From: an uncultured Candidatus Saccharibacteria bacterium
GTDB taxonomy: Bacteria > Patescibacteriota > Minisyncoccia > Phycocordibacterales > JACOZG01
DNA: 41,478 nt
Direction: 5' to 3'
Assembly: GCA_964362425.1 (NCBI GenBank)
Contig: CAYIEL010000001.1
Location: 1-41,478 of the forward strand
The translations under genes were made by a program, and so were the position numbers. Shown one piece after another: positions 1,173 through 39,634 of this stretch. The notes below the pieces were generated by a model. It searched no databases. It was not told the DNA's origin and saw nothing but the letters and a program-made list of their open reading frames with translations. Every line of letters begins with the position of its first letter. Positions within the stretch are counted from its first letter, which is position 1.

Positions 1173-3386
1173 ATGCCCAAACTTGCAGACAAAAAATTAT
1201 TGATCGTTGAGTCGCCGGCCAAAGCAAAAACGATTGGCAAATATCTCGGCGGAGAATATCGCGTGCTCGCGAGTGTCGGCCACATTCGTGATTTACCAAA
1301 ATCAAACAAGAATGCTATCGACATCGAAGGCGGTTTTGTCCCCAATTACGAAATTGTAAAAGGGAAAGAGTTGATTGTGAACGAGCTCAAGAGCGCGACC
1401 AAAAATTACCCTAACGTCTTCCTCGCCACTGACCCGGACCGCGAAGGTGAGGCTATCGCTTGGCACATCGCCGAAGCAATTGGTTTGTCTGGCGCAAAAA
1501 TTAAACGAATCATTTTTCATGAAGTGACACCTGAAGCGATTAAAGAAGCCTTAACCCATCCGCGTCCGATTGATCAGAATTTACTCCAAGCCCAAGAAGC
1601 TCGGCGCGTACTTGATCGACTCTTCGGTTATGATCTCTCCGGCCTCATCTGGCAGAAATTGCGCTATGGTCTCTCGGCCGGCCGTGTTCAATCCCCCGCT
1701 CTCCGCATCCTCGTCGAACGGGAAAAAGAAATCCGCGCTTTTATCCCCGTCAAATATTGGGTTATCACCGCCATTCTCAAAACAAAAAAAGGGGATGAAA
1801 TAACTTTTACCGCCACTATCGAACCGAAGACTGAAACGGAAGCCGAAGCGATTGTTAATGCGGGTCGCAAGGCTAATTGGAAAGTCGGTGATGTCGAAGC
1901 GCGCTCCGTCGCTCGTCGGCCGCGACCACCCTTCACCACTTCAACCCTTCAACAAGCGGCCTCCTCGCGACTCGGTTTCTCACCAGCCGTCACCATGCGT
2001 CACGCCCAACGTCTTTACGAAGCCGGACTGATCACCTATATGCGCACCGACAGCACGGCGATGAACGCCGGCGCGGTCAACGACATTATTGCCATCGCCC
2101 GCGCCGAGTACGGCGCGGCTTACGCTAGCTCTCCCCGTTTCTACCAAACGAAAAGCAAAAACGCCCAAGAAGCCCACGAGGCAATTCGACCAACTAGAAT
2201 CGGGACGCGAAGCGGCGGAGCGAGCGACGGTGAACACAAACTTTATGATCTGATTTGGCGACGCACTCTCGCCTGTCAAATGGCTGATGCTGAAGGCGCG
2301 CAAACAACTGTCACGGCCATTGCCGACAATCCAACTGTCCCCACTTTCACCGCCAGTGGTTACCGTATCAAATTCGACGGCTGGTTGCGTGCCGATCCGG
2401 CCACCCGGGGCGAAGAAAATGAATTGCCGACGGTCAATAAAGATGAACCGCTGGATTTGAAAAATATCGCGAGCGAAGGCAAGGAGACGACACCGCCTAA
2501 TCGCTACAGCGAAGCGGGGTTAGTGAAAGAGTTAGAGAAACGTGGCATCGGTCGGCCGAGCACTTATGCCTCAATTATCAAAACAATTCTTGATCGCGGT
2601 TACGTCGAAAAACTTAATCGTTCGCTTCAGCCAACCGAGACTGGCGAAGTGGTTAGCGATTTCTTGTCCGCTAATTTCAATGACTACATTAGCGATTCTT
2701 TCACCGCCAAAATGGAAGATGAACTTGACGAAATTGCCGGTGGCCGGTTGGAATATATTAAATCGATGAAGAATTTTTACGGGCCATTTCATCAAGCGGT
2801 TTTAGCCAAAAAGAAAATCCCGAAAATTAGCAATCTGGGCGACGGCCCAGTCGAAATGAAGTGCCCGATCTGTAACGACAAAATGGTTTGGAAATTAGGC
2901 CGGAGTGGAAAATTTTTGAGTTGCACCCGATTTCCCGACTGCACTGGCGCGCGAAGCGCGGTGGGTGTGGCCATGGTTGGGCCAAAAGAAACCGGTGAGG
3001 AGTGCCCCAAATGTAAAGATGGAAAATTGGTGGAGCGTGACGGAAAATTTGGACGTTTCGTCGCTTGTTCTAATTACCCGAAATGCAAATTTGTGAAGCA
3101 AGACGAGCAAGCCGCCGCGGCGGCCGATACTGGTGTCAAATGTCCCGTTTGTGCAAAAAGCTTGCCCGACTCTCGGCGGGGAACGATGGCCGAACGCCGC
3201 GGTCGCTACGGCATTTTTTATGGTTGCACTAATTATCCGGCTTGCAAAAATGCCATCAAAGCCAAACCAACCGGTGATCTCTGCCCGCAGTGTGGCGCCT
3301 TAATGATGGAAGGGACAAAAACTATTCCGGTCCGTTGCTCAAATAAAGCGTGTCCGAATCACAATCCGCAGAAACTCAAAACTTAA
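1173..3386 (+). CDS. topA: DNA topoisomerase I
   Basis: TOPRIM N-terminus LLIVESPAKAKTIGKYLG and DPDREGEAIAWH, active-site Tyr context ITYMRTDS, and four C-terminal CxxC...C zinc-ribbon repeats. Confidence 0.95.
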   Translation: MPKLADKKLLIVESPAKAKTIGKYLGGEYRVLASVGHIRDLPKSNKNAIDIEGGFVPNYEIVKGKELIVNELKSATKNYPNVFLATDPDREGEAIAWHIAEAIGLSGAKIKRIIFHEVTPEAIKEALTHPRPIDQNLLQAQEARRVLDRLFGYDLSGLIWQKLRYGLSAGRVQSPALRILVEREKEIRAFIPVKYWVITAILKTKKGDEITFTATIEPKTETEAEAIVNAGRKANWKVGDVEARSVARRPRPPFTTSTLQQAASSRLGFSPAVTMRHAQRLYEAGLITYMRTDSTAMNAGAVNDIIAIARAEYGAAYASSPRFYQTKSKNAQEAHEAIRPTRIGTRSGGASDGEHKLYDLIWRRTLACQMADAEGAQTTVTAIADNPTVPTFTASGYRIKFDGWLRADPATRGEENELPTVNKDEPLDLKNIASEGKETTPPNRYSEAGLVKELEKRGIGRPSTYASIIKTILDRGYVEKLNRSLQPTETGEVVSDFLSANFNDYISDSFTAKMEDELDEIAGGRLEYIKSMKNFYGPFHQAVLAKKKIPKISNLGDGPVEMKCPICNDKMVWKLGRSGKFLSCTRFPDCTGARSAVGVAMVGPKETGEECPKCKDGKLVERDGKFGRFVACSNYPKCKFVKQDEQAAAAADTGVKCPVCAKSLPDSRRGTMAERRGRYGIFYGCTNYPACKNAIKAKPTGDLCPQCGALMMEGTKTIPVRCSNKACPNHNPQKLKT

Positions 3387-3387
3387 A

Positions 3388-4347
3388 TTAAACCGTAAAG
3401 TTTTTGATGTTGTAAAGCTCGTCTTCGGGGTCAGGTTGAGGAATTGGTTCGGAAGGAATAATTGAATCGGCAGGTGGCATCGCTTGATCTGGTAGGGTCG
3501 CGATGAAAACTGAACCAAGATCTCCAGAGGCGAGGCGATCAAGCAGATTGCGCAGATCGTCGGTCGAAAAGAAATCGATCGTCACCTTTCCGCCTGATTC
3601 ACGCCGTTCGACTTGAACGCGAGCCCCAAGGGTCTCGGCTAACTTCTGCTCGAGTTCCATCGTCGCGGGATCAAGAATGTATTCCTTCTTACGAACGCGG
3701 TCATTGGCGATCCGGCGCGCGATCTGCTCGGCCTCGCGGACGTTGAGATGTTTCAGAGTAATTTCTTGGAACAGATTCTGTTGAGCTTCGGGATGTTCAA
3801 TCAGCATCAGAAGTGGCCGAGTGTGACCCTCGGTAATGTGACCGGCCGTAATCGCATCAAGCATCTCTTCTGACAACGCTAGAATGCGAAGAGTGTTAGT
3901 TACATACTCCCGACTCTTGCCGACCTTCTTCGCAATTTCGGTATGCTTCAATTTAAATTCTTTCACCAAACGCTCGAAGGCGAGCGCACGGTCAACCGAA
4001 TTCAAATCTTCACGTTGAAGATTTTCAATAATTGCCATCTCGAGCTTCAACTTATCATTGTCCCCACCGGCGCGAATCACACACGGCACCTGCGAGATAC
4101 CAGCCAGCTGGGCGGCGCGCCAACGACGTTCACCGGCGATCAATTCATACTCGACATAAAGACTGCCGTCTTCGCGTTCTTGCTCGTGGCGAGTGAGAAC
4201 AAGTGGCTGAAGCACGCCGTATTGGCGGATAGAATCGGCCAAGTCGCGCAAACGATCCTCGTTAAATTCCCGACGGGGTTGGAAAGGATTGGGCTTGATT
4301 TTAGCCACTTCGATCCAGAAGATGGAATCGTTGTAGATTTCAGACAT
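3388..4347 (-). CDS. parB: chromosome partitioning protein ParB/Spo0J
   Basis: ParB N-terminal box PNPFQPRREF, CTP-binding GERRWRAA motif, and HTH region TEIAKKVGKSREYVTNTLRIL. Confidence 0.9.
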   Translation of the reverse strand: MSEIYNDSIFWIEVAKIKPNPFQPRREFNEDRLRDLADSIRQYGVLQPLVLTRHEQEREDGSLYVEYELIAGERRWRAAQLAGISQVPCVIRAGGDNDKLKLEMAIIENLQREDLNSVDRALAFERLVKEFKLKHTEIAKKVGKSREYVTNTLRILALSEEMLDAITAGHITEGHTRPLLMLIEHPEAQQNLFQEITLKHLNVREAEQIARRIANDRVRKKEYILDPATMELEQKLAETLGARVQVERRESGGKVTIDFFSTDDLRNLLDRLASGDLGSVFIATLPDQAMPPADSIIPSEPIPQPDPEDELYNIKNFTV

Positions 4348-4583: not shown

Positions 4584-5549
4584 ATGGAATCCTCTTTAGC
4601 TATCGCCGTAGTTGGGCCGACGGCCAGTGGTAAATCCGCGCTCGCCGTTCGGCTCGCGCGTCAATTCGGTGGGGAAATTATTTCCGCGGATTCGCGACAA
4701 GTTTATCGTGGGCTAGATATCGGAAGTGGAAAAATCACTAAACGGGAAATGCGTGGTATCCCCCATCACCTACTCGATGTGGCAAATCCAAAATCAGCTT
4801 TTTCGGCCGCGCAATATCAAAAATTAGCCGATCAAGCGCTTAAAGAAATCGGCAAGCGCGGTAAAGTGCCAATCATTTGCGGCGGTACCGGTTTTTACAT
4901 TGATGTCTTACGAGGCAAGGTGACTCTCCCACCGGTGCCACCGAATCGGGCCCTGCGGGCCAAACTCGAAAAACTAAGCACTGAGAAACTGGGTGAGAAG
5001 CTTAAACTTCTTGACCCCAAAAGATTTAAAAGTATTGATGCCAGAAACAGACCGAGACTGATCCGCGCTATAGAAATTGCTACGGCGCTAGGTCACGTGC
5101 CACCATTGGAATTAAATACAAAGGGTAGTCCTTGGGGGTCAAAGGACTACCCTTTAATCACCAGCAAGGACAGTCCTTGCTGGTTAAATTTGGGGATCAA
5201 GCTTGAGCCGGAAGAATTGCGGGAAAAAATTAATACTCGCCTGCGCTATCGCCTTCAGCATGGTTTAATCGCTGAAGTGAAAAAACTACACGCCAATGGT
5301 TTAAGCTGGAAACGACTCGATGCGCTCGGACTTGAGTATCGTTATATCGCGGAATTTTTACAAAAGCGCGAGAAATTCCTGCTCTTGCAGGAACAACTCG
5401 CCACCGCTATTTGGCATTACGCTAAAAGGCAAATGACTTGGTTTAAACGAGATAAAACTATTAAATGGGTGAAGGATTATCAAGAAGCGGAAAAACAAAC
5501 AGTGGCGTTTCTTAAGGTTCGACCTTTTTCTGTCAAGGTCGAACCTTGA
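4584..5549 (+). CDS. miaA: tRNA dimethylallyltransferase MiaA
   Basis: P-loop AVVGPTASGKSALA, then SADSRQVYRGLDIGSGK and CGGTGFY. The start was moved to the ATG at 4584 because the track ORF start (4530) lies inside tRNA-Arg. Confidence 0.9.
   Translation: MESSLAIAVVGPTASGKSALAVRLARQFGGEIISADSRQVYRGLDIGSGKITKREMRGIPHHLLDVANPKSAFSAAQYQKLADQALKEIGKRGKVPIICGGTGFYIDVLRGKVTLPPVPPNRALRAKLEKLSTEKLGEKLKLLDPKRFKSIDARNRPRLIRAIEIATALGHVPPLELNTKGSPWGSKDYPLITSKDSPCWLNLGIKLEPEELREKINTRLRYRLQHGLIAEVKKLHANGLSWKRLDALGLEYRYIAEFLQKREKFLLLQEQLATAIWHYAKRQMTWFKRDKTIKWVKDYQEAEKQTVAFLKVRPFSVKVEP
5120..5184. repeat. two adjacent perfect hairpin palindromes (AAGGAC/GTCCTT core) inside the miaA reading frame
   Basis: 14-bp stem 5120-5133/5142-5155 and 11-bp stem 5160-5170/5174-5184, in frame, encoding KGSPWGSKDYPLITSKDSPCW. 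Confidence 0.8.
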
Positions 5550-13489: not shown

Positions 13490-13506
13490 TGGATAAGTTA
13501 TCCACA
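13490..13506. promoter_or_regulatory. inverted pair of DnaA boxes (TGGATAA-g-TTATCCACA)
   Basis: Perfect consensus 9-mer TTATCCACA at 13498-13506, abutted by an inverted near-consensus box. Confidence 0.5.
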
Positions 13507-13534
13507 CCTACTCCGAGCATCTGCATCTCTGCGC

Positions 13535-13618: not shown

Positions 13619-13714
13619 CTTTATGTTTTGTTGTTTCTGTATTCTAACTTCTTTCGTTGAGTATCTAGGTACTGCTAGTAGCAAGGACTCACCTTAATAT
13701 TAAAGCGAGAGCAG

Positions 13715-13723
13715 TTATCCACA
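13715..13723 (+). promoter_or_regulatory. DnaA box, perfect consensus TTATCCACA
   Basis: Identical 15-mer ttatccacacctact as at 13498-13512. It lies 21 nt upstream of a TTGACA-16-TATCAT promoter (13745-13772). Confidence 0.5.
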
Positions 13724-13828
13724 CCTACTTACAGATACAAAAGATTGACATGAGCGAGATGTTTGCTATCATAAAGATACATTCGGCGATTTGCCGCGGC
13801 CCCGCCCACAAGGCGGGGAATATTGGTC

Positions 13829-14218
13829 TTATTTGTACAACCTCCAGAAAAACTCTTTTACCCTCCTAAAATCTTCTTCATCTGTCACGCCTAACCGATT
13901 GGACAATCTTCGATAATCAATTGTTCTTAATTGATGTAAGCAAACGTACATATCTCGTCCTTCTTGTTTTATTGGCACATACCAAGTCCCCTCTTTCTTT
14001 TGAGAAGTGGTCGGAGCAACGAGAAAAAATCCTCGAGATAATTTTTTTATTATCAACCCTGGCCGAGAAAATAATCTGCTCTTGCCATTCATCTCCGAAC
14101 CAATATTTTCACCAAAACTCACCCACCACAAATCACGTTCTTTAACCAACGGCGGATCGTTATCGACATTATGAAGTTTTTCTTTAAGCCCTATCCATTC
14201 CAAAAATCTTTTGAGCAT
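13829..14218 (-). CDS. PemK/MazF-family-like toxin protein with no adjacent antitoxin ORF
   Basis: 129 aa with core ERDLWWVSFGENIGSEMNGKSRLFSRPGLIIKK. It is a clear paralog of the 36779..37171 product. Confidence 0.6.
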   Translation of the reverse strand: MLKRFLEWIGLKEKLHNVDNDPPLVKERDLWWVSFGENIGSEMNGKSRLFSRPGLIIKKLSRGFFLVAPTTSQKKEGTWYVPIKQEGRDMYVCLHQLRTIDYRRLSNRLGVTDEEDFRRVKEFFWRLYK

Positions 14219-14250: not shown

Positions 14251-15372
14251 TTAAGCAATCCGCGCTCGTTTCAGAATCTCCGGTAAAATTTTGAGAACGT
14301 AATCCAGATCAGCTTTTTTGGTTTCGCGACTTAAGGTAAAACGCACGGCCGTTTGAGCATAAGTCGCGTCGTGACCCAAAGCGGTGATAACATGCGAGGC
14401 AGGTTTCTCTTGCGCCGAACAGGCGCTTCCGGACGCGGCGAGTACGCCACGCGCATCAAGATTCAAAACCATAAATTCACTATCTGCCTCCGCGAAACTA
14501 ACATTCACATTATTTGGTAAGCGGTTTGTCGCCGAGCCGTTGAGAGTTGTGCCGGGCAAAGCTAATAATTTTTTAATAAAATAATCGCGCAACTTGGCTA
14601 AACGCGCCGATTCTTTTTCCCGCGATCGCGTACACTTTTCAAGCGCTTGGGCGAAATTCGCCGCGGCCGACACATTTTCCGTGCCACTGCGTCGGCCGCG
14701 TTCCTGCCCACCGCCGTACAGAATCGGCTGCAGATTAATCCCCCGCCGCGCATAGAGACACCCACTACCCTTCGGTCCACCAACCTTGCTTGAATTTATC
14801 GTCATCAAATCAACTCCCAATCGCGCGGCATTAAGATCGAGAAATGGAGGAGCTTGGCAGGCGTCGGTGTGAAAGACACACCGTCGCCGAATTATTTTGG
14901 CAATTTCACGTAGCGGTTGGATAACGCCGATTTCGTTATTGGCATAACCGATCGAGACGAGAATTGTCTCCGGTCGCAGAGCTTGAGCTAATTCTTTCAG
15001 ATCAATCAGACCATCTGATTTAACCAGCAAATAAGTTACAGAGAAACCCTCATGCTCTAATTGCCGACACGATTCAAGAATCGAAGCATGCTCTATTTTT
15101 GTTGTAATGATATGAAATGTTAAACACCGAGTGTCGCACATTTTGTTTGACACTCGGTGTCGAGCTAATCCGAAAATCGCCAAATTATTCGCTTCCGTTC
15201 CGCCACTGGTAAAAATTATTTCATCACTGTGCGCGTTAAGCACCCGCGCAACCGTTTGTCGCGCTTCACTAAGTGTTTGCGCGGTACGCACGCCCGCACT
15301 ATGAATACTGGACGGATTATCGCTTCCAGCCGCCGCATCAAGGTTGATTAATCTCTTAGTTATCTTCGCCAT
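14251..15372 (-). CDS. cysteine desulfurase (NifS/IscS family) carrying an in-frame repeat insertion
   Basis: IIFTSGGTEANNLAI, the PLP-Lys context INSSKVGGPKGSG, and the catalytic Cys loop ASGSACSA. Confidence 0.9.
   Translation of the reverse strand: MAKITKRLINLDAAAGSDNPSSIHSAGVRTAQTLSEARQTVARVLNAHSDEIIFTSGGTEANNLAIFGLARHRVSNKMCDTRCLTFHIITTKIEHASILESCRQLEHEGFSVTYLLVKSDGLIDLKELAQALRPETILVSIGYANNEIGVIQPLREIAKIIRRRCVFHTDACQAPPFLDLNAARLGVDLMTINSSKVGGPKGSGCLYARRGINLQPILYGGGQERGRRSGTENVSAAANFAQALEKCTRSREKESARLAKLRDYFIKKLLALPGTTLNGSATNRLPNNVNVSFAEADSEFMVLNLDARGVLAASGSACSAQEKPASHVITALGHDATYAQTAVRFTLSRETKKADLDYVLKILPEILKRARIA
15118..15161. repeat. 44-nt palindromic repeat, copy A, inside the nifS-like ORF
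   Basis: tgttaaacaccgagtgtcgcacattttgtttgacactcggtgtc matches the reverse complement of 22075-22118 at 41 of 44 positions. 11-bp stem caccgagtgtc/gacactcggtg. Confidence 0.9.
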
Positions 15373-18249: not shown

Positions 18250-18325
18250 TCCGCCCAGAGGGATTTGCATCCCCGACCGTCTGCTTAAGAGTCCGCCAGC
18301 CGGCGGATCTACTAACTGAGCTATT
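18250..18325 (-). pseudogene. degenerate tRNA-Lys-like sequence (tRNA ghost)
   Basis: Shares an identical 18-mer (cgaccgtctgcttaagag, 18274-18291 vs 18371-18388) and a 10-mer D-arm block with the adjacent tRNA-Lys. The anticodon-stem 5' half and the T-arm are replaced and no acceptor stem can be drawn. Confidence 0.5.
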
Positions 18326-33639: not shown

Positions 33640-33702
33640 CTCTCTGCGGAGAGTTAGCCAAAACCTTTGCTTGCGAGCAAGGGCGGAAGTGACTGCGGTC
33701 AC
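33640..33702 (+). promoter_or_regulatory. array of three stem-loops, each capped by a UGCG tetraloop, in the 5' leader of the 33715 gene
   Basis: ctctc-TGCG-gagag (33640-33653), cctttgct-TGCG-agcaaggg (33664-33683), gtgac-TGCG-gtcac (33689-33702). GAGGAG follows immediately. Confidence 0.6.
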
Positions 33703-33714
33703 GAGGAGATTAAC

Positions 33715-34899
33715 ATGATTGAAACTCTGTCGCGTGTCTTATCCCAAGGAAGAAACTACGAACTACTGACCTTGGTCAAAGATAAACCACTAGAAGAAAG
33801 AGTGCAGTTATTAGCTTCGGTTTTTTCAGAAGCTACAAAACACTTCGATGATGACCGAGCGGTGGACTTGATTCCACTTATTCTGCGGGCGATTGATGAC
33901 GTTCGTCTTAACACTCCACCAATAGACGAGGAGGGGGCGGCTCTTCAGCTTTGCGGGGGAAAAACCTGGCAAGAAGAACAAGTTCGGAGAGACTACACTC
34001 TCGACAGATACGTAAAACAATTCCGTGATCTCTGGTGCACACAATTACCGTGTAATCCGGACACGGCACAATATAATTTGGAGAGCAAAGAAGGTCGTCG
34101 TAAACTCACTTTTGTCAAAACAAGAAAGGTTTTGATCCGAGGATTTCTTGATGCCTGGGCGGTAACTGATTCTGACGATCGAGCGCGCGTTTACTGGAAT
34201 TCTTTGTTTAGCCTATCTTTTGGCCGAGATTATTTCGAGCACGATGATCTGCTGGTTGATGCTTTGCGTGACACAACGGACAAAAACGTTTCGATTTCAC
34301 CTCTTGACCAAGCTATTAACTGCTTGTCCGAAGAACACGCCTTGCGTGCTTTTCCCTTACTTCGCAAAAAGGAAGAGGGCCGAGATAAAGTTTTGCGAGT
34401 GCTTCTGACCGCCCGAGCGCGTAACGTTAAACTCGACCGGGCAAGACAAGAGATCTTGGTTTTGTCTTCTGTCCATGGAGCATCGGCGCCGGCTTACGCG
34501 GCGTTACTGGATGAAGCCAAGAAAATCGCGGCACAAGATGTGGCTGGCCAAGAACTTCTGCGTTTAGTTACCGGACGAACACCGGGTCTAGAGTATAGTC
34601 GTGACGACCAGATCGTCGGTGGCGTTATTTCTCTCGAGTTCCCCGATCGTCTCACGATTGTGATAAAAATCTTGTGGGACGCTAACAACTGGAGTAACCG
34701 GTGTAATCGTCAACCAGAAGACAAAGTTCTTCATCACTGGATGGAGATGGGGCTAGACCGCGCGATAATTTGGCGGAAAGGGTACAACGCTGATCATTCC
34801 CCATCCATGAAAGTCATTGTCCGTTTGTTCACTTGCGAAAAGGTATACGGAGATAAACCTAGGGAAGAGAAGCCCTTCCGCGAGGAAGTAGCAAAGTAA
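33715..34899 (+). CDS. hypothetical protein with no recognisable domain
   Basis: 394 aa from the ATG at 33715, with GAGGAG 7 nt upstream and a strong terminator downstream. No motif I could assign. Confidence 0.55.
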   Translation: MIETLSRVLSQGRNYELLTLVKDKPLEERVQLLASVFSEATKHFDDDRAVDLIPLILRAIDDVRLNTPPIDEEGAALQLCGGKTWQEEQVRRDYTLDRYVKQFRDLWCTQLPCNPDTAQYNLESKEGRRKLTFVKTRKVLIRGFLDAWAVTDSDDRARVYWNSLFSLSFGRDYFEHDDLLVDALRDTTDKNVSISPLDQAINCLSEEHALRAFPLLRKKEEGRDKVLRVLLTARARNVKLDRARQEILVLSSVHGASAPAYAALLDEAKKIAAQDVAGQELLRLVTGRTPGLEYSRDDQIVGGVISLEFPDRLTIVIKILWDANNWSNRCNRQPEDKVLHHWMEMGLDRAIIWRKGYNADHSPSMKVIVRLFTCEKVYGDKPREEKPFREEVAK

Positions 34900-35251: not shown

Positions 35252-35675
35252 GTCGGCGCTCCCGCGCCTCCCTTACAAGGCCATTGCCGAGCAAGTGCTC
35301 GGCTTATCTGTCTCCGAGGTAAGTCTCACTTTCATCGGCCCTAGTCGTTCGCATGAGCTAAACCGCATTTATCGCGGGAAGGATAAGCCCGCCAACATTC
35401 TCACTTTCCCACTAGCAAAAAACGAAGGTGAAATTTTGATTGATCTCATCACCACCCGCGCCGAAGCGGCGCGGACCGGCGCGCTCTTCACTGATTATCT
35501 TCGCCACCTCTTTATCCACGGTTTACTTCATTTGAAAGGTTTCGACCACGGGAGTAGAATGGAGTCACTCGAACGCGATATTATCAGTTTTTTTAGTCGT
35601 TATGGGCAGAACCATCGTCACCGGACTCGACGTCGGCACAGCGTCGGTCAGAGTTGCAGTCTGCGAAGTCATTAA
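35223..35675 (+). CDS. ybeY: rRNA maturation endoribonuclease YbeY
   Basis: Zn-binding signature HGLLHLKGFDH. Start placed at the ATG at 35223 (uncertain). The 3' end overlaps ftsA by 74 nt. Confidence 0.8.
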   Translation: MSLAIRNLTKSALPRLPYKAIAEQVLGLSVSEVSLTFIGPSRSHELNRIYRGKDKPANILTFPLAKNEGEILIDLITTRAEAARTGALFTDYLRHLFIHGLLHLKGFDHGSRMESLERDIISFFSRYGQNHRHRTRRRHSVGQSCSLRSH

Positions 35676-36768
35676 GGGCGCCAGACACCCGAAAGTTTTG
35701 GCGTTGGTAAAAACCGAATCCCGCGGCCTACGTCGCGGTTACGTGATCAATCAAGAAGAAGCCAGCCAATCAATCCGCACCGCCTTGGCCGAAGCCGAAC
35801 GCCAATCGCAAACACGAATCAAAAAAGTTTTCTTGGGCCTCGGTGGCGTCACCCTTGAATCGCGCATCAGCGACGGCCAAGTGGTCGTCTCACGCGCTGA
35901 CGCCGAGATCACCGACAACGATATCAATCGAGCGATTGAATTGGCCGAAAGCAGTCTAACTGACATGGCCAATAATCGAGTTATTCATACCATCCCAATT
36001 TCTTTTAAACTTGATGGCAAAAGAATTCCGGGCCGGCCGGAAGGCATGCATGGGACGAAGCTCGAAGCCCGCGTCCTCTTCATTGTCTGTCTCGACCAAC
36101 ATCTTAATAATCTGGTGCGGTCGGTCGAAATGGCGAAGGTCTCCGTCAACGACATTGTTGCCGCGCCGATTGCCGCGGCTTTAACCTCTCTTAATACACA
36201 ACAGAAAACCGTCGGTTGTGTCTTGGCCAACATCGGTTCGCAAACCACTTCACTCGCCGTCTTCGAAGACGGCATTCCTGTCTCGCTCCAAATTCTGCCA
36301 ATCGGTTCAATGGATATCACCAATGACATCGCTCTCGGTCTCCGTGTCCCCCTCGACGAAGCGGAACGTCTGAAAATCAGTGGCGATCAAATGTTTACTT
36401 ACCGGAAAAAACTCGACGAGATTATCGAGGCTCGTTTATCAGATATGTTTGATTTAATTGAAGGGCATTTGAAAAAAATCGGCCGGAGCGGATTACTGCC
36501 GGCCGGCATTATTATTACTGGCGGGGGTGGAAATATCGAAAACATTGCCGGCTTGGCCAAAGATGAACTTCGTCTTCCCGCTCGCGTCTTCACTCCAGTC
36601 GGCGATAATCAAGGCCGACCAGCACTCCGTGACAGCAATTGGATTGTGGCTTACGGACTTTGCCTCTTCGGCTTGGGTGGCGACTACGTTGAGGATTCAA
36701 TTATCTCCAATATCGTCAATCGAACAAAGCACACCTTTTTCCACTGGCTTAAAGAACTCTGGCCGTAA
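35602..36768 (+). CDS. ftsA: cell division protein FtsA
   Basis: Actin-fold phosphate-1 GLDVGTASVRVAV, IIITGGGGNIENI, and a C-terminal amphipathic helix FFHWLKELWP. Confidence 0.9.
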   Translation: MGRTIVTGLDVGTASVRVAVCEVIKGARHPKVLALVKTESRGLRRGYVINQEEASQSIRTALAEAERQSQTRIKKVFLGLGGVTLESRISDGQVVVSRADAEITDNDINRAIELAESSLTDMANNRVIHTIPISFKLDGKRIPGRPEGMHGTKLEARVLFIVCLDQHLNNLVRSVEMAKVSVNDIVAAPIAAALTSLNTQQKTVGCVLANIGSQTTSLAVFEDGIPVSLQILPIGSMDITNDIALGLRVPLDEAERLKISGDQMFTYRKKLDEIIEARLSDMFDLIEGHLKKIGRSGLLPAGIIITGGGGNIENIAGLAKDELRLPARVFTPVGDNQGRPALRDSNWIVAYGLCLFGLGGDYVEDSIISNIVNRTKHTFFHWLKELWP

Positions 36769-36769
36769 A
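36755..36769 (+). repeat. 15-bp direct repeat DR1 (AACTCTGGCCGTAAA), including the ftsA stop codon
   Basis: Identical 15-mer at 37299-37313. Confidence 0.85.
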
Positions 36770-36778
36770 GAATTTTCC

Positions 36779-37171
36779 ATGCAGAAAGATTTTCAACAAT
36801 GGCACATTGCCAAAGAAAAGATTCATTGCCAATCAGACGGTCAGACCATCTATTTTCACGAACGAGATATATGGTGGTGTCGGATCGGCGTTAATGTTGG
36901 TTTTGAACAAGACGGCAAAGGAAAATCATTTAGCCGGCCGGTGCTAATTGTTAAGAAATTCAATCAGTTTGTGTTCTGGGCTATCCCACTTTCCACAAAA
37001 ATCAAAAAGAATCGTTATTATTTAGCTTGTGCCTGTTCAGATGGAGAAACCCGTGCCGCGATAATCTCCCAACTTCGTTTGATTAGTTCAAAACGACTAA
37101 CGGACAAAGTTGGTTTTGCCAAAGAAGACTCTTTTTCGGCTATCAAAAAAGCGATCAAAGATTTACTCTGA
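36779..37171 (+). CDS. PemK/MazF-family-like toxin protein with no adjacent antitoxin ORF
   Basis: 130 aa from the ATG at 36779, with core ERDIWWCRIGVNVGFEQDGKGKSFSRPVLIVKK. Paralog of the 13829..14218 product. Confidence 0.6.
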   Translation: MQKDFQQWHIAKEKIHCQSDGQTIYFHERDIWWCRIGVNVGFEQDGKGKSFSRPVLIVKKFNQFVFWAIPLSTKIKKNRYYLACACSDGETRAAIISQLRLISSKRLTDKVGFAKEDSFSAIKKAIKDLL

Positions 37172-37263
37172 CCGCTTCTCTGATTGATTATTCCTGATCC
37201 GTTTGCGCGGATCAAAGCCCGAAGGCCATTTGTACTTTCTAGTATACTCACCCGCCATTTTTA

Positions 37264-37275
37264 GTCAAGCTTGAC
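37264..37275. repeat. short GTCAAG-CTTGAC palindrome
   Basis: gtcaagcttgac is a minimal form of the GTCAAGG...CCTTGAC family. Confidence 0.4.
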
Positions 37276-37298
37276 ACAACGATTATTCATTATCCAAA

Positions 37299-37313
37299 AA
37301 CTCTGGCCGTAAA
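37299..37313 (+). repeat. 15-bp direct repeat DR2 (AACTCTGGCCGTAAA)
   Basis: Identical to 36755-36769. Together they bracket the PemK-like cassette. Confidence 0.85.
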
Positions 37314-37318
37314 AAGTG

Positions 37319-37705
37319 TCAAACAAACTTTTTAGAAATGGCCAGCAGGTAAACAGCCATCCCCACAACAAGTACTGCATTAATAAGCCCCGTTGCATAA
37401 AATTTGCTATTAATAAAAAAGAACGAAATAACTTGCAAAATAGCTAGAGCCGTGAATGCGTGGAGAGTCCACTTTCTCATTGCCCGAAGGCTGAAAGATA
37501 AAATTATATAGAACAATCCAATAATCACAGGCAGTATCATAAGATAGGAATCCGCAAAAGAAGCCCCTACCACTATTGCTACAAAAAATGCTAAAGGAAC
37601 TACCGCCAGACTGCCAACTCCCATCGCAAAAATAATCCAAGAAATTATCGTGACAAGTACTGGGCGGTTCGGCTTATTGGCAATCTGAGTATCCGAATTA
37701 AGCAT
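37319..37705 (-). CDS. four-helix membrane protein, hypothetical
   Basis: 128 aa from the ATG at 37705, strongly hydrophobic, lying between ftsA and ftsZ. Confidence 0.45.
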   Translation of the reverse strand: MLNSDTQIANKPNRPVLVTIISWIIFAMGVGSLAVVPLAFFVAIVVGASFADSYLMILPVIIGLFYIILSFSLRAMRKWTLHAFTALAILQVISFFFINSKFYATGLINAVLVVGMAVYLLAISKKFV

Positions 37706-37744
37706 GAATTTTAATATAGCACAGTTGAACAAAAAACATTTGGG

Positions 37745-37753
37745 TTATCCACA
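37745..37753 (+). promoter_or_regulatory. DnaA box, perfect consensus TTATCCACA, 68 nt upstream of ftsZ
   Basis: Exact 9-mer match. Confidence 0.35.
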
Positions 37754-37820
37754 GTCACTTAAATCCCGACCGGTGATTTGCCTTTTTTGTCCGTTCTGAT
37801 ACGCTTAAGCCACAAAACCT

Positions 37821-38978
37821 ATGCCTAAAATCAATCCAGAAATTGAAGCTTTTGCCAGAATTAAAGTCGTCGGTGTCGGCGGTTCCGGCAAGAACGCCGT
37901 TAATCACATGATTAATTCCAAGGTTCGAGGGGTTGATTTCATCGCGATTAACACTGACGCCCAGGACCTTCATCATTCGCTAGCCAAACACAAAATTCAC
38001 ATTGGCAAAAATTTAACGCGCGGACTCGGCACCGGCATGAACCCCGAGGTCGGTCGCAAAGCGGCCGAAGAGAGCGTGGAAGAAGTTCAGAACGCTATCA
38101 AGGGCGCCGATATGGTCTTCATCGCTGGCGGAACCGGCGGCGGAACGCTAAGTGGCGCTGGACCTTTTGTCGCCAAAGTAGCAAAAGATTTGGGTGCGCT
38201 CACGGTGGCTGTGGTCACAAAACCTTTCTTCTTTGAGGGTTCACAACGAATGCAAATTGCTGAACGGGCGATCGAGGAATTGCGAAAAGAAGTTGACGCG
38301 CTTGTTGTCATTCCGAATGATCGTTTGCTCGGCTTGATTGATAAAAATACAACTTGCTTCTCGGCTTTTGCCACTTGCGACGAAGTGCTTCGCCAAGCCG
38401 TCGAGGGTATTTCCGATTTGATTACTACGCCCGGTATCATTAACGTCGACTTCGCCGACATCAAATCAATTATGTCGAACGCCGGTTCGGCACTAATGGG
38501 GATCGGCCGCGGTTCGGGCGACAATCGCGCCGCCATGGCCGCCCAACAAGCGATCAATTCTCCCCTCCTCGATGTCTCGATTGAGGGGGCACACGGCGTC
38601 CTCTTTGCCATTGCCGGCGGAAAAGATATGACCATGTTTGAAATTCAAGAGGCCGCTAAAGCCATTATTGAATCCGTTGACCCGAATGCCAAAATTATTT
38701 TCGGCGCCATTCATGATGACAAGTTAAATAAAAATGAAATTAAAATCACCGTCATCGCTTCTGGTTTTCCAGAAAATGCCAAGAAGAAACCGATGACCCG
38801 ACTGGGCGAAGAAACCACACCGGTCGAACAAACTAAAGAAAAAGAAGTCTCTGTCGAACCAGATATCCGTTATCCAAAACGCGCCGAAGTGCCGAAAACC
38901 GCAACAACCAAGATTGAAGAAGAAACCGACGACTGGGCTTCCATCCCTGCTTTTCTACGACGTTCCAAGAAGCCGTAA
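37821..38978 (+). CDS. ftsZ: cell division protein FtsZ
   Basis: IKVVGVGGSGKNAVNHM, the tubulin signature GGTGGGTLSGAGP, NDRLL, and the C-terminal peptide DDWASIPAFLRR. Confidence 0.95.
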   Translation: MPKINPEIEAFARIKVVGVGGSGKNAVNHMINSKVRGVDFIAINTDAQDLHHSLAKHKIHIGKNLTRGLGTGMNPEVGRKAAEESVEEVQNAIKGADMVFIAGGTGGGTLSGAGPFVAKVAKDLGALTVAVVTKPFFFEGSQRMQIAERAIEELRKEVDALVVIPNDRLLGLIDKNTTCFSAFATCDEVLRQAVEGISDLITTPGIINVDFADIKSIMSNAGSALMGIGRGSGDNRAAMAAQQAINSPLLDVSIEGAHGVLFAIAGGKDMTMFEIQEAAKAIIESVDPNAKIIFGAIHDDKLNKNEIKITVIASGFPENAKKKPMTRLGEETTPVEQTKEKEVSVEPDIRYPKRAEVPKTATTKIEEETDDWASIPAFLRRSKKP

Positions 38979-39037: not shown

Positions 39038-39634
39038 ATGAAAAATAAACAAGGTTTTTCAAGTCTCGTTTTTATTATCATTATCGTTCTCATTTTAGGC
39101 GGCGGCTACTGGGTGTGGAAAGGGAAAACCGAAGCACCGGCACCAGTCGCTGATACCAACATCGAGCCACCACCTCCAGTTAATTTTTTTACAACTAAGA
39201 TTGACACCGTTAACTTACCCGCTGATCAGTTTGGTTGGAAAACTTACACAAATGAGCAATACGGATTTGAACTTAAATATCCAGGTACTTTATCTATAGA
39301 GTATACTAAGTTTCAAGACACCTCCACATTTATTTTTGATGATCCATATTCGAATCAATCTCCTGACGGTTTATTAGGAATTACCATATTCAATACAGCG
39401 GAAGCGTTTGCTGTTCAGAACACTAATTCGACCAATGCTGGAGAAGATGTTACTGTCGGTGGAGAAAAAGCTAAAAAAAAGTTTTGGACAATTTCTCTTG
39501 GCCAGGCACCGAGTGAAATCTCTTATTCAATTCCAAGCAAGAAAATCGTTTTAAGATTTGATAGGGGTTCTTACAATGCAATTATTGATTCTGATATGGA
39601 TAAGATCCTCTCCACCTTCCGGTTCACAAAATAA
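39038..39634 (+). CDS. secreted or membrane-anchored hypothetical protein
   Basis: 198 aa with an N-terminal TM/signal segment SSLVFIIIIVLILGGGYWVW. Confidence 0.45.
   Translation: MKNKQGFSSLVFIIIIVLILGGGYWVWKGKTEAPAPVADTNIEPPPPVNFFTTKIDTVNLPADQFGWKTYTNEQYGFELKYPGTLSIEYTKFQDTSTFIFDDPYSNQSPDGLLGITIFNTAEAFAVQNTNSTNAGEDVTVGGEKAKKKFWTISLGQAPSEISYSIPSKKIVLRFDRGSYNAIIDSDMDKILSTFRFTK

Follow-up and report, generated by a model that had tools for sequence, protein, structure and literature searches.

Between the division genes ftsA and ftsZ of a Patescibacteria (Paceibacteria) population from Hainich groundwater lies a horizontally acquired module of ~0.5 kb, in which a gene for a MazF/PemK-fold toxin converges with a gene for a structured antisense RNA – predicted to be ~90 nt long and, as we infer, the antitoxin. 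The locus is part of a 41,478-bp stretch of DNA (the window), in which an earlier, sequence-only reading had picked out a 15-bp direct repeat around the toxin gene and taken it for the duplicated target or attachment core of an inserted cassette. The insertion itself and the duplication of the ftsA end have both held up; a self-contained mobile cassette, with the repeat as its target duplication or attachment core, has not found support. With moderate confidence, we see the locus instead as a hotspot occupied by two cargo units – the acquired toxin/antisense-RNA module and a gene for a membrane protein – with the repeat as a fossil ftsA tail.

The toxin and its gene

The features of the locus, in the order of their coordinates, are as follows; L numbers denote related loci from other assemblies, and TM stands for transmembrane.

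35602–36768, plus strand: ftsA, 388 aa (Pfam FtsA/SHS2_FTSA; 34 orthologous loci)
36755–36769, extending to 36752, plus strand: repeat copy 1, the functional ftsA tail (L-W-P-stop)
36779–37171, plus strand: MazF/PemK-fold toxin gene, 130 aa (Pfam; AF2/Foldseek; alignment of catalytic residues)
37277–37298: lineage-specific 21–22 nt between the end of the conserved module and repeat copy 2 (the alignment diverges from L038, L044 and L045)
37299–37313, extending to 37296, plus strand: repeat copy 2, a non-functional ftsA tail, 6 nt (37313–37318) from the stop of the 4-TM gene
37319–37705, minus strand: orphan gene for a hydrophobic (3–4 TM) protein, 128 aa from its ATG (hydropathy)
37713–37753, minus strand: promoter region of the 4-TM gene, with a perfect DnaA-box-like TTATCCACA (37745–37753)
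37777–37805, plus strand: ftsZ's own promoter, TTTGCC-17-TACGCT (kept beside ftsZ in L001, L007, L008, L038 and L004)
37821–38978, plus strand: ftsZ (Pfam Tubulin/FtsZ_C)

The sequence-only reading had placed a 130-aa PemK/MazF open reading frame (ORF) 10 nt after the ftsA stop, and both its coordinates and its Pfam match (PF02452, PemK_toxin; 5e-11, 43.1 bits against a cut-off of 23.1) agree with this. An AF2 model built from 28 homologues has a mean pLDDT of 82.6 and, when compared with the PDB using Foldseek, the 50 best matches listed are all of the MazF family (MazF, EndoA/YdcE and MoxT; E ~1e-6, TM score 0.6–0.77). On the basis of alignment only (hhalign), R53, which is invariant across the 28 sequences, corresponds to the catalytic R25 of Bacillus subtilis MazF and S72 to its T48; the SQLRLIS.KRLTDK motif also aligns with this protein, beyond which the toxin has an additional helix at its N-terminus (about 25 aa) and a loop insertion of 5 residues. 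The MazF fold and the aligned catalytic residues suggest that the 130-aa protein is probably active as a toxin and endoribonuclease.

Detectable relatives of the toxin number 453 and are mostly from Patescibacteria, and a scan of viral contigs with the toxin profile yielded 1 locus. Neither the toxin nor the 4-TM protein has a match above cut-off in PADLOC or NCBIfam, the toxin showing a sub-threshold similarity to the type III model CptIN (E 0.04, 13.8 bits against a cut-off of 90). Since a promoter/terminator scan found no plus-strand promoter between ftsA and the toxin ATG, nor a terminator that would separate the two genes, the toxin is probably transcribed here by read-through from ftsA.

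A predicted convergent antisense RNA

The predicted RNA is convergent with the toxin gene and overlaps its last 9 codons together with its 3′ untranslated region (UTR). Its parts are listed here, with MFE standing for minimum free energy.

37145–37234, minus strand: predicted antisense small RNA, ~90 nt (covariance model 96 bits, E 2e-21; MFE; covariation)
37241–37268, minus strand: promoter of the RNA, TTGACT-16-TATACT (best promoter match in the region, 10/12)
37216–37227, minus strand: helix P1, GGCC-UUCG-GGCU, with a c(UUCG)g tetraloop, invariant
37194–37215, minus strand: helix P2, 8 bp, corresponding to the previously noted 7-bp hairpin (compensatory changes in 6/8 pairs)
37142–37184, minus strand: helix P3 and U-run, an intrinsic terminator inside the toxin codons KKAIKDLL*

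Structure, strand and promoter of this RNA are all apparent from comparison among cassettes. On the antisense strand, and at the same position, 10/10 distinct cassettes carry a promoter of the form TTGAC(N)-16/17-TA(N)(N)(N)T, which in these 10 cassettes is fixed 40–41 nt from the invariant GGCCUUCGGGCU element/P1, while the sequence of the spacer varies freely. Taking the RNA as a whole, 98.2% of 279 pair cells are standard when read as antisense, compared with 79% when read as sense, 54 of them being G·U cells (C·A on the toxin-sense strand), and compensatory double changes are found in 11 pairs – values that none of 500 shuffles reached. P3 accounts for 16 pairs, which are 98.8% paired and include 5 with compensatory changes, and for 30 G·U cells that would become C·A mismatches on the toxin-sense strand; its U-run is the complement of two Lys codons of the toxin, and the terminator is probably bidirectional and common to both transcripts. 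The MFE of the window RNA is −41.6 kcal/mol (z = −7.4).

A covariance model made from the alignment gives one antisense match per cassette (81–103 bits) and otherwise, in 426 kb, only weak opposite-strand matches at these same terminators (17–30 bits) and one marginal match (E 0.93). Only 6 loci emerged from a metagenome scan with the invariant RNA motif, and a search of 36700–37850 against Rfam at E up to 10 returned only two chance-level matches. The 5′ 21 nt of the RNA (ACAAAUGGCCUUCGGGCUUUG) are near-invariant across toxins that are just 62–67% identical. A mini-ORF within the RNA (AUGGCCUUCGGGCUUUGA) was considered as a coding sequence and rejected, because its AUG is missing in L044, L067 and L072.

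The two palindromic elements of the sequence-only reading can both be located: the hairpin TGATCCG/CGGATCA at 37195–37201 and 37208–37214, and the palindrome GTCAAGCTTGAC at 37264–37275, within which lies the −35 box of the RNA promoter. They belong to the predicted antisense RNA gene, as a helix and the −35 box, and are not recombination sites. Three palindromic elements directly after a gene, as in integron attC sites and terminators, might also be read as a conserved sense-strand terminator/3′ UTR or an attC-like DNA recombination site with no RNA gene at all, which is hardly credible given the strand-specific pairing (98% against 79%, with the 54 G·U cells becoming C·A on the sense strand), the correctly spaced antisense −35 and −10 boxes conserved while the spacer drifts, the covariance scores (81–103 bits antisense against 17–30 bits sense) and the lack of an RYYYAAC/GTTRRRY core and of an integrase.

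The same layout recurs, in different sequences, in distant paralogues of the toxin (35–47% identity), where a strong convergent promoter is followed by 5′ hairpins (one paralogue again has UUCG as a loop) and by a terminator that lies at the toxin end or within it. Such paralogues stand after ftsZ in L001 and L006, with a further one in L001, one on the viral contig L066 and one at 13829–14218 in the window; the RNAs of L001 and L006 differ from each other by compensatory changes. The window paralogue, a minus-strand PemK/MazF gene (Pfam 1e-11), shares 35% identity with the toxin beside ftsA and 59% with the copy that follows ftsZ in L001, and is faced by a convergent promoter, TTGACA-16-TATCAT, from 13746 and a hairpin with a U-rich RNA (CCCCGCC..GGCGGGG) homologous to the RNAs of L001 and L006.

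Acquisition and spread of the module

A search for the cassette elsewhere, proposed along with the sequence-only reading, places the toxin module at at least six other kinds of locus besides ftsA. It is found after recG (L044), between fusA and tuf (L045–L049 and L051), immediately before atpG (L050, L052 and L053), between rplE and rpsN in the spc operon (L070), within a pilin cluster (L067) and beside TrmB (L072), as well as directly after ftsA, 9 nt from its stop, in L038 and L075. Alignment across these contexts delimits a conserved unit that runs from the toxin start codon to ~105 nt past its stop, ending at ~37277 in the window, so that conservation between loci stops 21 nt before repeat copy 2. 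No neighbouring ORF is conserved across the contexts and therefore no protein antitoxin is evident; as far as these sequences tell, the only conserved partner of the toxin is the antisense RNA. In the fusA–tuf spacer of L045 (2770–4930; also L046–L049), the toxin module is inserted among an array of small genes on the minus strand (130, 128 and 57 aa), in which near-perfect TTGACT-N17-TATAAT promoters and terminator hairpins recur.

The relatives can be sorted by FtsA identity into clade I (79–96%), comprising the window, L057, L001, L062, L003, L002, L004 and L006, and clade II, comprising L038, L007 and L008, which is ~65% identical to the window. Toxin identity among the window, L038 and L075 is 85–87%, as compared with only 65% for FtsA, and the toxin is missing from sister lineages in both clades. 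The toxin gene is thus a horizontally acquired insertion. That the toxin stands next to ftsA in three lineages and two clades could in principle reflect ancestral synteny, with the toxin always after ftsA and repeatedly lost, and with the repeat due to chance or local slippage. This we consider very improbable, as between the clades the toxin is more conserved (85%) than FtsA (65%), TrxB (70%) or FtsZ (81%), at least eight sister lineages are without it, its GC content is low and a chance 15-mer repeat within 1 kb is expected only 0.035 times per window. The GC content of the toxin gene, like that of the 4-TM gene, is 40%, against 50–51% for ftsA and ftsZ.

No integrase, transposase or other recombinase was found in the 41-kb window, and a repeat scan of 36400–38000 found no terminal inverted repeats on the module. 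The window does contain a gene for DprA (250–1146), a finding consistent with cargo reaching hotspots when foreign DNA is taken up and recombined. The module, which has no recombinase of its own, spreads horizontally, probably through DNA uptake and host recombination.

The ftsA–ftsZ gap as a cargo hotspot

Across the 34 related loci, the gene order ybeY–ftsA–ftsZ–trxB is conserved and the distance between ftsA and ftsZ is in most cases 17–60 nt; in the window it is 1052 nt, as had been reported. Empty sites with a single copy of the motif, whose existence the insertion model predicted, were found in L001 (FtsA 87% identical) and L062 (84%), where the motif is followed by a 51–56-nt spacer and then ftsZ. 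Elsewhere the gap is filled, each time differently: with >4 kb of large surface proteins in L057 – whose FtsA is the closest, at 89% identity – with secreted proteins in L004, with a 416-aa and a 197-aa protein in L006, and with yet different cargo genes in L029, L022, L023, L033 and L034, L038 also being cargo-bearing.

The ftsZ promoter is retained in empty and filled sites alike. The space between the ftsA stop and this promoter is a tolerated accessory-gene hotspot in this Paceibacteria clade, occupied in the present genome by two unrelated cargo units, the toxin/RNA module and the orphan membrane-protein gene. The sequence-only reading, which spoke of a growth-inhibitor gene inside the division operon, was right in that the toxin gene is inserted between ftsA and ftsZ; however, as ftsZ keeps its own conserved promoter, the splitting of the operon is probably harmless and the expression of ftsZ need not be disturbed.

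The second accessory gene, reported on the opposite strand, is indeed there and encodes a strongly hydrophobic protein with 3–4 predicted TM spans, for which neither Pfam nor NCBIfam nor PADLOC has a match. Its one homologue among 5.8 billion proteins is encoded at a non-ftsA locus, beside RNase J, in a Vogelbacteria genome (L055). DNA homology between the window and L055 continues for ~24 nt past the 4-TM stop and ends at the outer edge of repeat copy 2; read in the orientation of ftsA, the L055 flank (5409–5431) is AAAAAACTTTTGTCGTAG, corresponding to K-K-L-L-S-stop, and matches ftsA tails at 15/21 positions. This likeness suggests that the 4-TM unit at one time lay directly against an ftsA end, which it can take along. 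Cargo lies similarly close to the ftsA stop in other loci – 9 nt in L004 and 2 nt in L006, compared with the 6 nt between copy 2 and the 4-TM stop.

The promoter region of the 4-TM gene can be aligned with the upstream region of its homologue in L055 and, in L004 and L006, with the DNA upstream of minus-strand cargo genes unrelated to it. The window has only three perfect TTATCCACA sites, all at the edges of accessory units: two of them fall within a 17-nt direct repeat, AGTTATCCACACCTACT (13496–13512 and 13713–13729, 217 nt apart), just upstream of the RNA promoter of the second toxin, and the third (37745–37753) precedes the 4-TM promoter. The box is also present ~40 nt upstream of unrelated cargo genes in L004 (3330) and L006 (7460), and is a candidate operator or shared cargo promoter.

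The ftsZ–trxB spacer is a second cargo site, empty in many relatives; in L001 (7392–7781) and L006 (9445–9834) it holds the toxin paralogue with its RNA, and in the window an unrelated 198-aa protein (39038–39634) without a Pfam match. Farther upstream, between hisS and an 83-aa gene that precedes ybeY, a 410-aa ORF (33667–34899), again without a Pfam match, has no counterpart in the gene tables of L057 and L062 and may be another lineage-specific insertion.

The 15-bp repeat and its origin

The 15-mer AACTCTGGCCGTAAA occurs at 36755–36769 and 37299–37313, just as first described, and these are its only two exact copies in the window; no third site is present even at ≤2 mismatches (expected 0.06). 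With its flanks the repeat extends to 17/18 matches (36752–36769 and 37296–37313), and a search for longer, decayed ftsA homology upstream of copy 2 (37277–37298) found no significant similarity. The distance of 529 bp between the copies is also correct. Somewhat less of ftsA is contained in the 15-mer than the four codons E-L-W-P and the stop that had been ascribed to it: L-W-P and the stop are there, along with one base after the stop, but of the Glu codon only the last base.

That such a repeat is not expected by chance was confirmed by Markov simulations, which gave 0.035 exact 15-mer direct repeats within 1 kb per window. When the ftsA tail of each of 13 insertion-bearing loci was compared with its own downstream gap, the longest match was 5–10 nt everywhere but here, where it was 15. 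The two copies recur in each of three independent assemblies from this population (L035, L036 and L037), so the repeat is not an assembly artefact. Nor is the 15-mer frequent genome-wide: over 463 kb of related loci, each genome has it just once, at the stop of ftsA (the same 15-mer terminates ftsA in L001, L006 and L057). Assemblies, simulations, gap comparison and this count together establish that the observation is real and that the 15-mer is no dispersed repeat. Other exact direct repeats of ≥15 nt in the window are found at 15349/15465 (16 nt, 116-nt spacing, near the start of a DUF4446 gene) and at 18274/18371, 18596/18941 and 4424/17815, which look like parts of putative tRNA genes.

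To explain how one ftsA came to have two tails, we propose that one cargo unit first abutted the ftsA stop and that the other arrived on the DNA of a relative in which it, too, abutted ftsA, so that two haplotypes – ftsA–toxin, as in L038 and L075, and ftsA–4TM – would have been joined. The incoming DNA would have been integrated at one end by a homologous crossover and at the other by an illegitimate join at A-rich microhomology, which is why both ftsA tails would have been kept. Had the toxin module come last, the empty site would be ftsA joined directly to the 4-TM gene, reading GGCTTAAAGAACTCTGGCCGTAAAAAGTGTCAAAC. In favour of such a scar, copy 2 abuts the 4-TM stop by 6 nt much as ftsA stops abut convergent cargo in L004 and L006, the module adjoins ftsA in the potential donor lineages L038 and L075, and the window encodes DprA (250–1146) and no recombinase.

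A variant of this order of events is possible, though we would not put it first: copy 2 would not have arisen when the toxin was inserted but would have travelled with the 4-TM unit, on its 3′ side, as part of the ftsA tail of a donor, and this unit would have been inserted later, downstream of a resident ftsA–toxin module. The variant draws on the L055 comparison, where homology ends at the outer edge of copy 2 and the flank (AAAAAACTTTTGTCGTAG) matches ftsA tails 15/21, and on L038 and L075, where the toxin gene is the one nearest to ftsA, with other cargo farther on. The flank similarity is, however, short and A/T-rich, the coincidence of the boundaries is uncertain by about 3 nt, and no haplotype with ftsA and the toxin alone was found in clade I.

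The model with which the repeat was first presented, taken here as that of a discrete mobile 529-bp cassette inserted by site-specific recombination or transposition in trans, with the 15-mer as its target-site duplication or att core, is an unlikely one. It would account well for an exact 15-bp repeat that brackets the cassette and regenerates the ftsA stop with one copy, and for the single motif copy at the empty site, and the same position after ftsA in three lineages could suggest a site preference. Yet L038 and L075 have the same module at the same site after ftsA without any repeat, and the copies in four other contexts (after recG, in the pilin cluster, in the spc operon and beside TrmB) likewise have no flanking repeats. 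There are, moreover, no terminal inverted repeats, no integrase or transposase in the 41 kb and no flanking motif common to the contexts, and the conserved module stops 21 nt short of copy 2.

The only other clear flanking duplication, that at atpG (L050, L052 and L053), also speaks against a mobile unit, consisting as it does of ~80 nt from the 5′ part of the atpG coding region, repeated upstream of the toxin. The two atpG copies show many synonymous differences in the first 30 nt and are identical at 38/40 positions in the next 40 nt, a pattern better explained by recombination between diverged alleles than by a staggered cut. This pseudo-copy before atpG comprises atpG codons 1–27 (L050 520–610; L053 2720–2825 against 3340–3412), with mainly synonymous differences from the real start, and is interrupted by a 31-nt palindromic insert, CTGCCTGTGC...GCAGACAGGTC. 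A 35-nt 'flanking repeat' at fusA–tuf (L045) was also considered as a target duplication and rejected, being a duplicated TTGACT-N17-TATAAT promoter of paralogous minus-strand genes.

How the RNA might act

Pairing with the toxin mRNA at its 3′ end is the likeliest mode of action of the RNA and would lead to decay of this mRNA or to blocked expression, in the manner of type I systems that overlap at the 3′ end; the RNA would be made from its own strong promoter while the toxin is read through from ftsA. We favour a pairing antitoxin because the layout is that of a type I 3′ overlap, with convergent transcripts, perfect complementarity and a shared terminator.

It is also conceivable, if rather doubtful, that the RNA neutralises the toxin by binding the protein, as in type III systems, or that the RNase has in it a substrate or a decoy. 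The Kid/MazF fold is common to ToxN-type toxins, the toxin has its weak sub-threshold NCBIfam match to the type III toxin CptIN (E 0.04), and the near-invariance of the RNA 5′ 21 nt (ACAAAUGGCCUUCGGGCUUUG) across toxins 62–67% identical exceeds what pairing with a co-evolving complementary strand would need, which keeps type III-like binding in play. Against it stand the lack of a tandem repeat array, a fold search that groups the toxin with MazF and not with ToxN, and the type I layout itself – opposite strand, perfect complementarity to the toxin 3′ end and a common terminator.

Returning to the antisense antitoxin, we lean, by a little, towards a general statement: that in a large MazF-fold family of Patescibacteria (453 relatives, at least two per genome here) the protein antitoxin has been replaced by a convergent structured antisense small RNA, toxin and RNA forming an undescribed, self-contained 0.5-kb module that repeatedly lodges in essential operons (ftsA–ftsZ, atp, fusA–tuf and spc), with the toxin dependent on read-through at some of these sites.

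Several points weigh against the account given here of the locus as a whole. P3 was not flagged by a simple terminator scan, since its stem extends into the U-run, and the RNA could bind the toxin protein or regulate something else. No intermediate haplotype – ftsA–4TM–ftsZ, or ftsA–toxin–ftsZ within clade I – was found among the related loci, nor was an empty haplotype at strain level, the closest FtsA (89% identical) being followed by other cargo. A staggered-cut insertion, too, would be expected to leave an exact, sharp-edged repeat of 15 bp, the likeness of the L055 flank to an ftsA tail amounts to only 15/21, and the 3′ part of ftsA shows no clear mosaic signal (its C-terminal region being generally more variable).

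Implications

The repeat is, on this reading, a minor recombination scar, and the module that it brackets is the more interesting object. A MazF lineage with a cis-antisense RNA as its only conserved partner would, if this is true, blur the classification into types I, II and III, and would explain many 'orphan' PemK/MazF annotations in the genomes of candidate phyla; it would also couple the expression of growth genes to a growth inhibitor held in check by RNA, in a small module directly testable in Escherichia coli. More broadly, the locus illustrates how cargo may enter ultra-small genomes without the enzymes of mobile elements: the stretch from the ftsA stop to the private promoter of ftsZ serves as a swap site, of which the 15-bp repeat is a readable scar. 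For those who scan genomes, the lesson is that a gene end regenerated by a short repeat does not, on its own, amount to evidence of an att site.

Comparison with known systems

As an insertion, the locus conforms to none of the familiar element classes. Unlike insertion sequences, miniature inverted-repeat transposable elements and transposons, it has no terminal inverted repeats, its direct repeats are absent at most copies or variable in length, and there is no transposase in the window; unlike an integron cassette, its palindromes are strand-specific RNA helices and a promoter, with no integrase; and unlike an element integrated at a gene 3′ end, its 529 bp hold only the toxin and the RNA, and there is no core repeat in L038 or L075. 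Homology-facilitated illegitimate recombination and integration hotspots flanked by core genes are known processes. What the locus shares with such hotspots is recombinase-less cargo between core genes, variable among relatives, with a short duplication and microhomology at the joint; it differs in that the process, the donor and the intermediates are here inferred from sequence.

By profile, fold and catalytic Arg plus Thr/Ser, the toxin belongs to the PemK/MazF family. MazF toxins are textbook type II toxins, whose partners to date have been, to our knowledge, protein antitoxins or, in the case of Myxococcus, a transcription factor. With type II MazEF/PemIK systems the present module shares the toxin fold, the RPV(L/V) catalytic Arg, the Ser/Thr and the SQ(L/I)R..KRL motif; it differs from them in the extra N-terminal helix (~25 aa) and the 5-residue loop insertion and in having no MazE/PemI-like or other conserved neighbouring ORF in at least eight contexts. 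It falls outside the definition of a type II operon because there is no protein antitoxin and the neighbours differ in every context. A limited literature search, extended to solitary MazF proteins and to toxin–antitoxin systems of candidate phyla, found no description of a MazF-family toxin with a convergent antisense RNA. Among published cases, aMEF is an antisense regulator of a normal mazEF operon (PMC8749433), an Enterococcus faecalis locus has mazEF adjoining a separate txpA type I module (PMC3074167) and the solitary MazF-mx of Myxococcus is controlled by a protein, the transcription factor MrpC (PMC4803016).

Like the type III systems ToxIN, CptIN and TenpIN, the module combines an RNase toxin with a structured RNA and no protein antitoxin, but the known type III RNA is an upstream, same-strand tandem repeat array processed by the toxin, whereas the RNA described here is single-copy and antisense. 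Because the repeat scan of 36400–38000 found no tandem-repeat array around the toxin and the toxin is not of the ToxN family (CptIN 13.8 against 90 bits), the module does not qualify as type III. SymE/SymR and RalR/RalA are similar in that a nuclease toxin is controlled by a small RNA, and different in their toxin folds; moreover, the overlap of SymR with its target is at the 5′ end, and RalA works in trans together with Hfq.

Type I loci with 3′-overlapping convergent RNAs include par/Fst of pAD1, with RNA I and RNA II, and txpA/RatA and bsrG/SR4 of B. subtilis. Like these, the module has – in silico – a small RNA encoded in cis and driven by a strong promoter of its own; it is convergent with the toxin gene, complementary to the 3′ end of the toxin mRNA, and ends at a hairpin that the toxin gene shares. 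What it does not have is the small hydrophobic peptide typical of type I: in place of a membrane peptide of <60 aa, the toxin is a soluble 130-aa protein of the MazF fold, a probable RNase, and the terminator of the RNA lies inside the toxin coding sequence.

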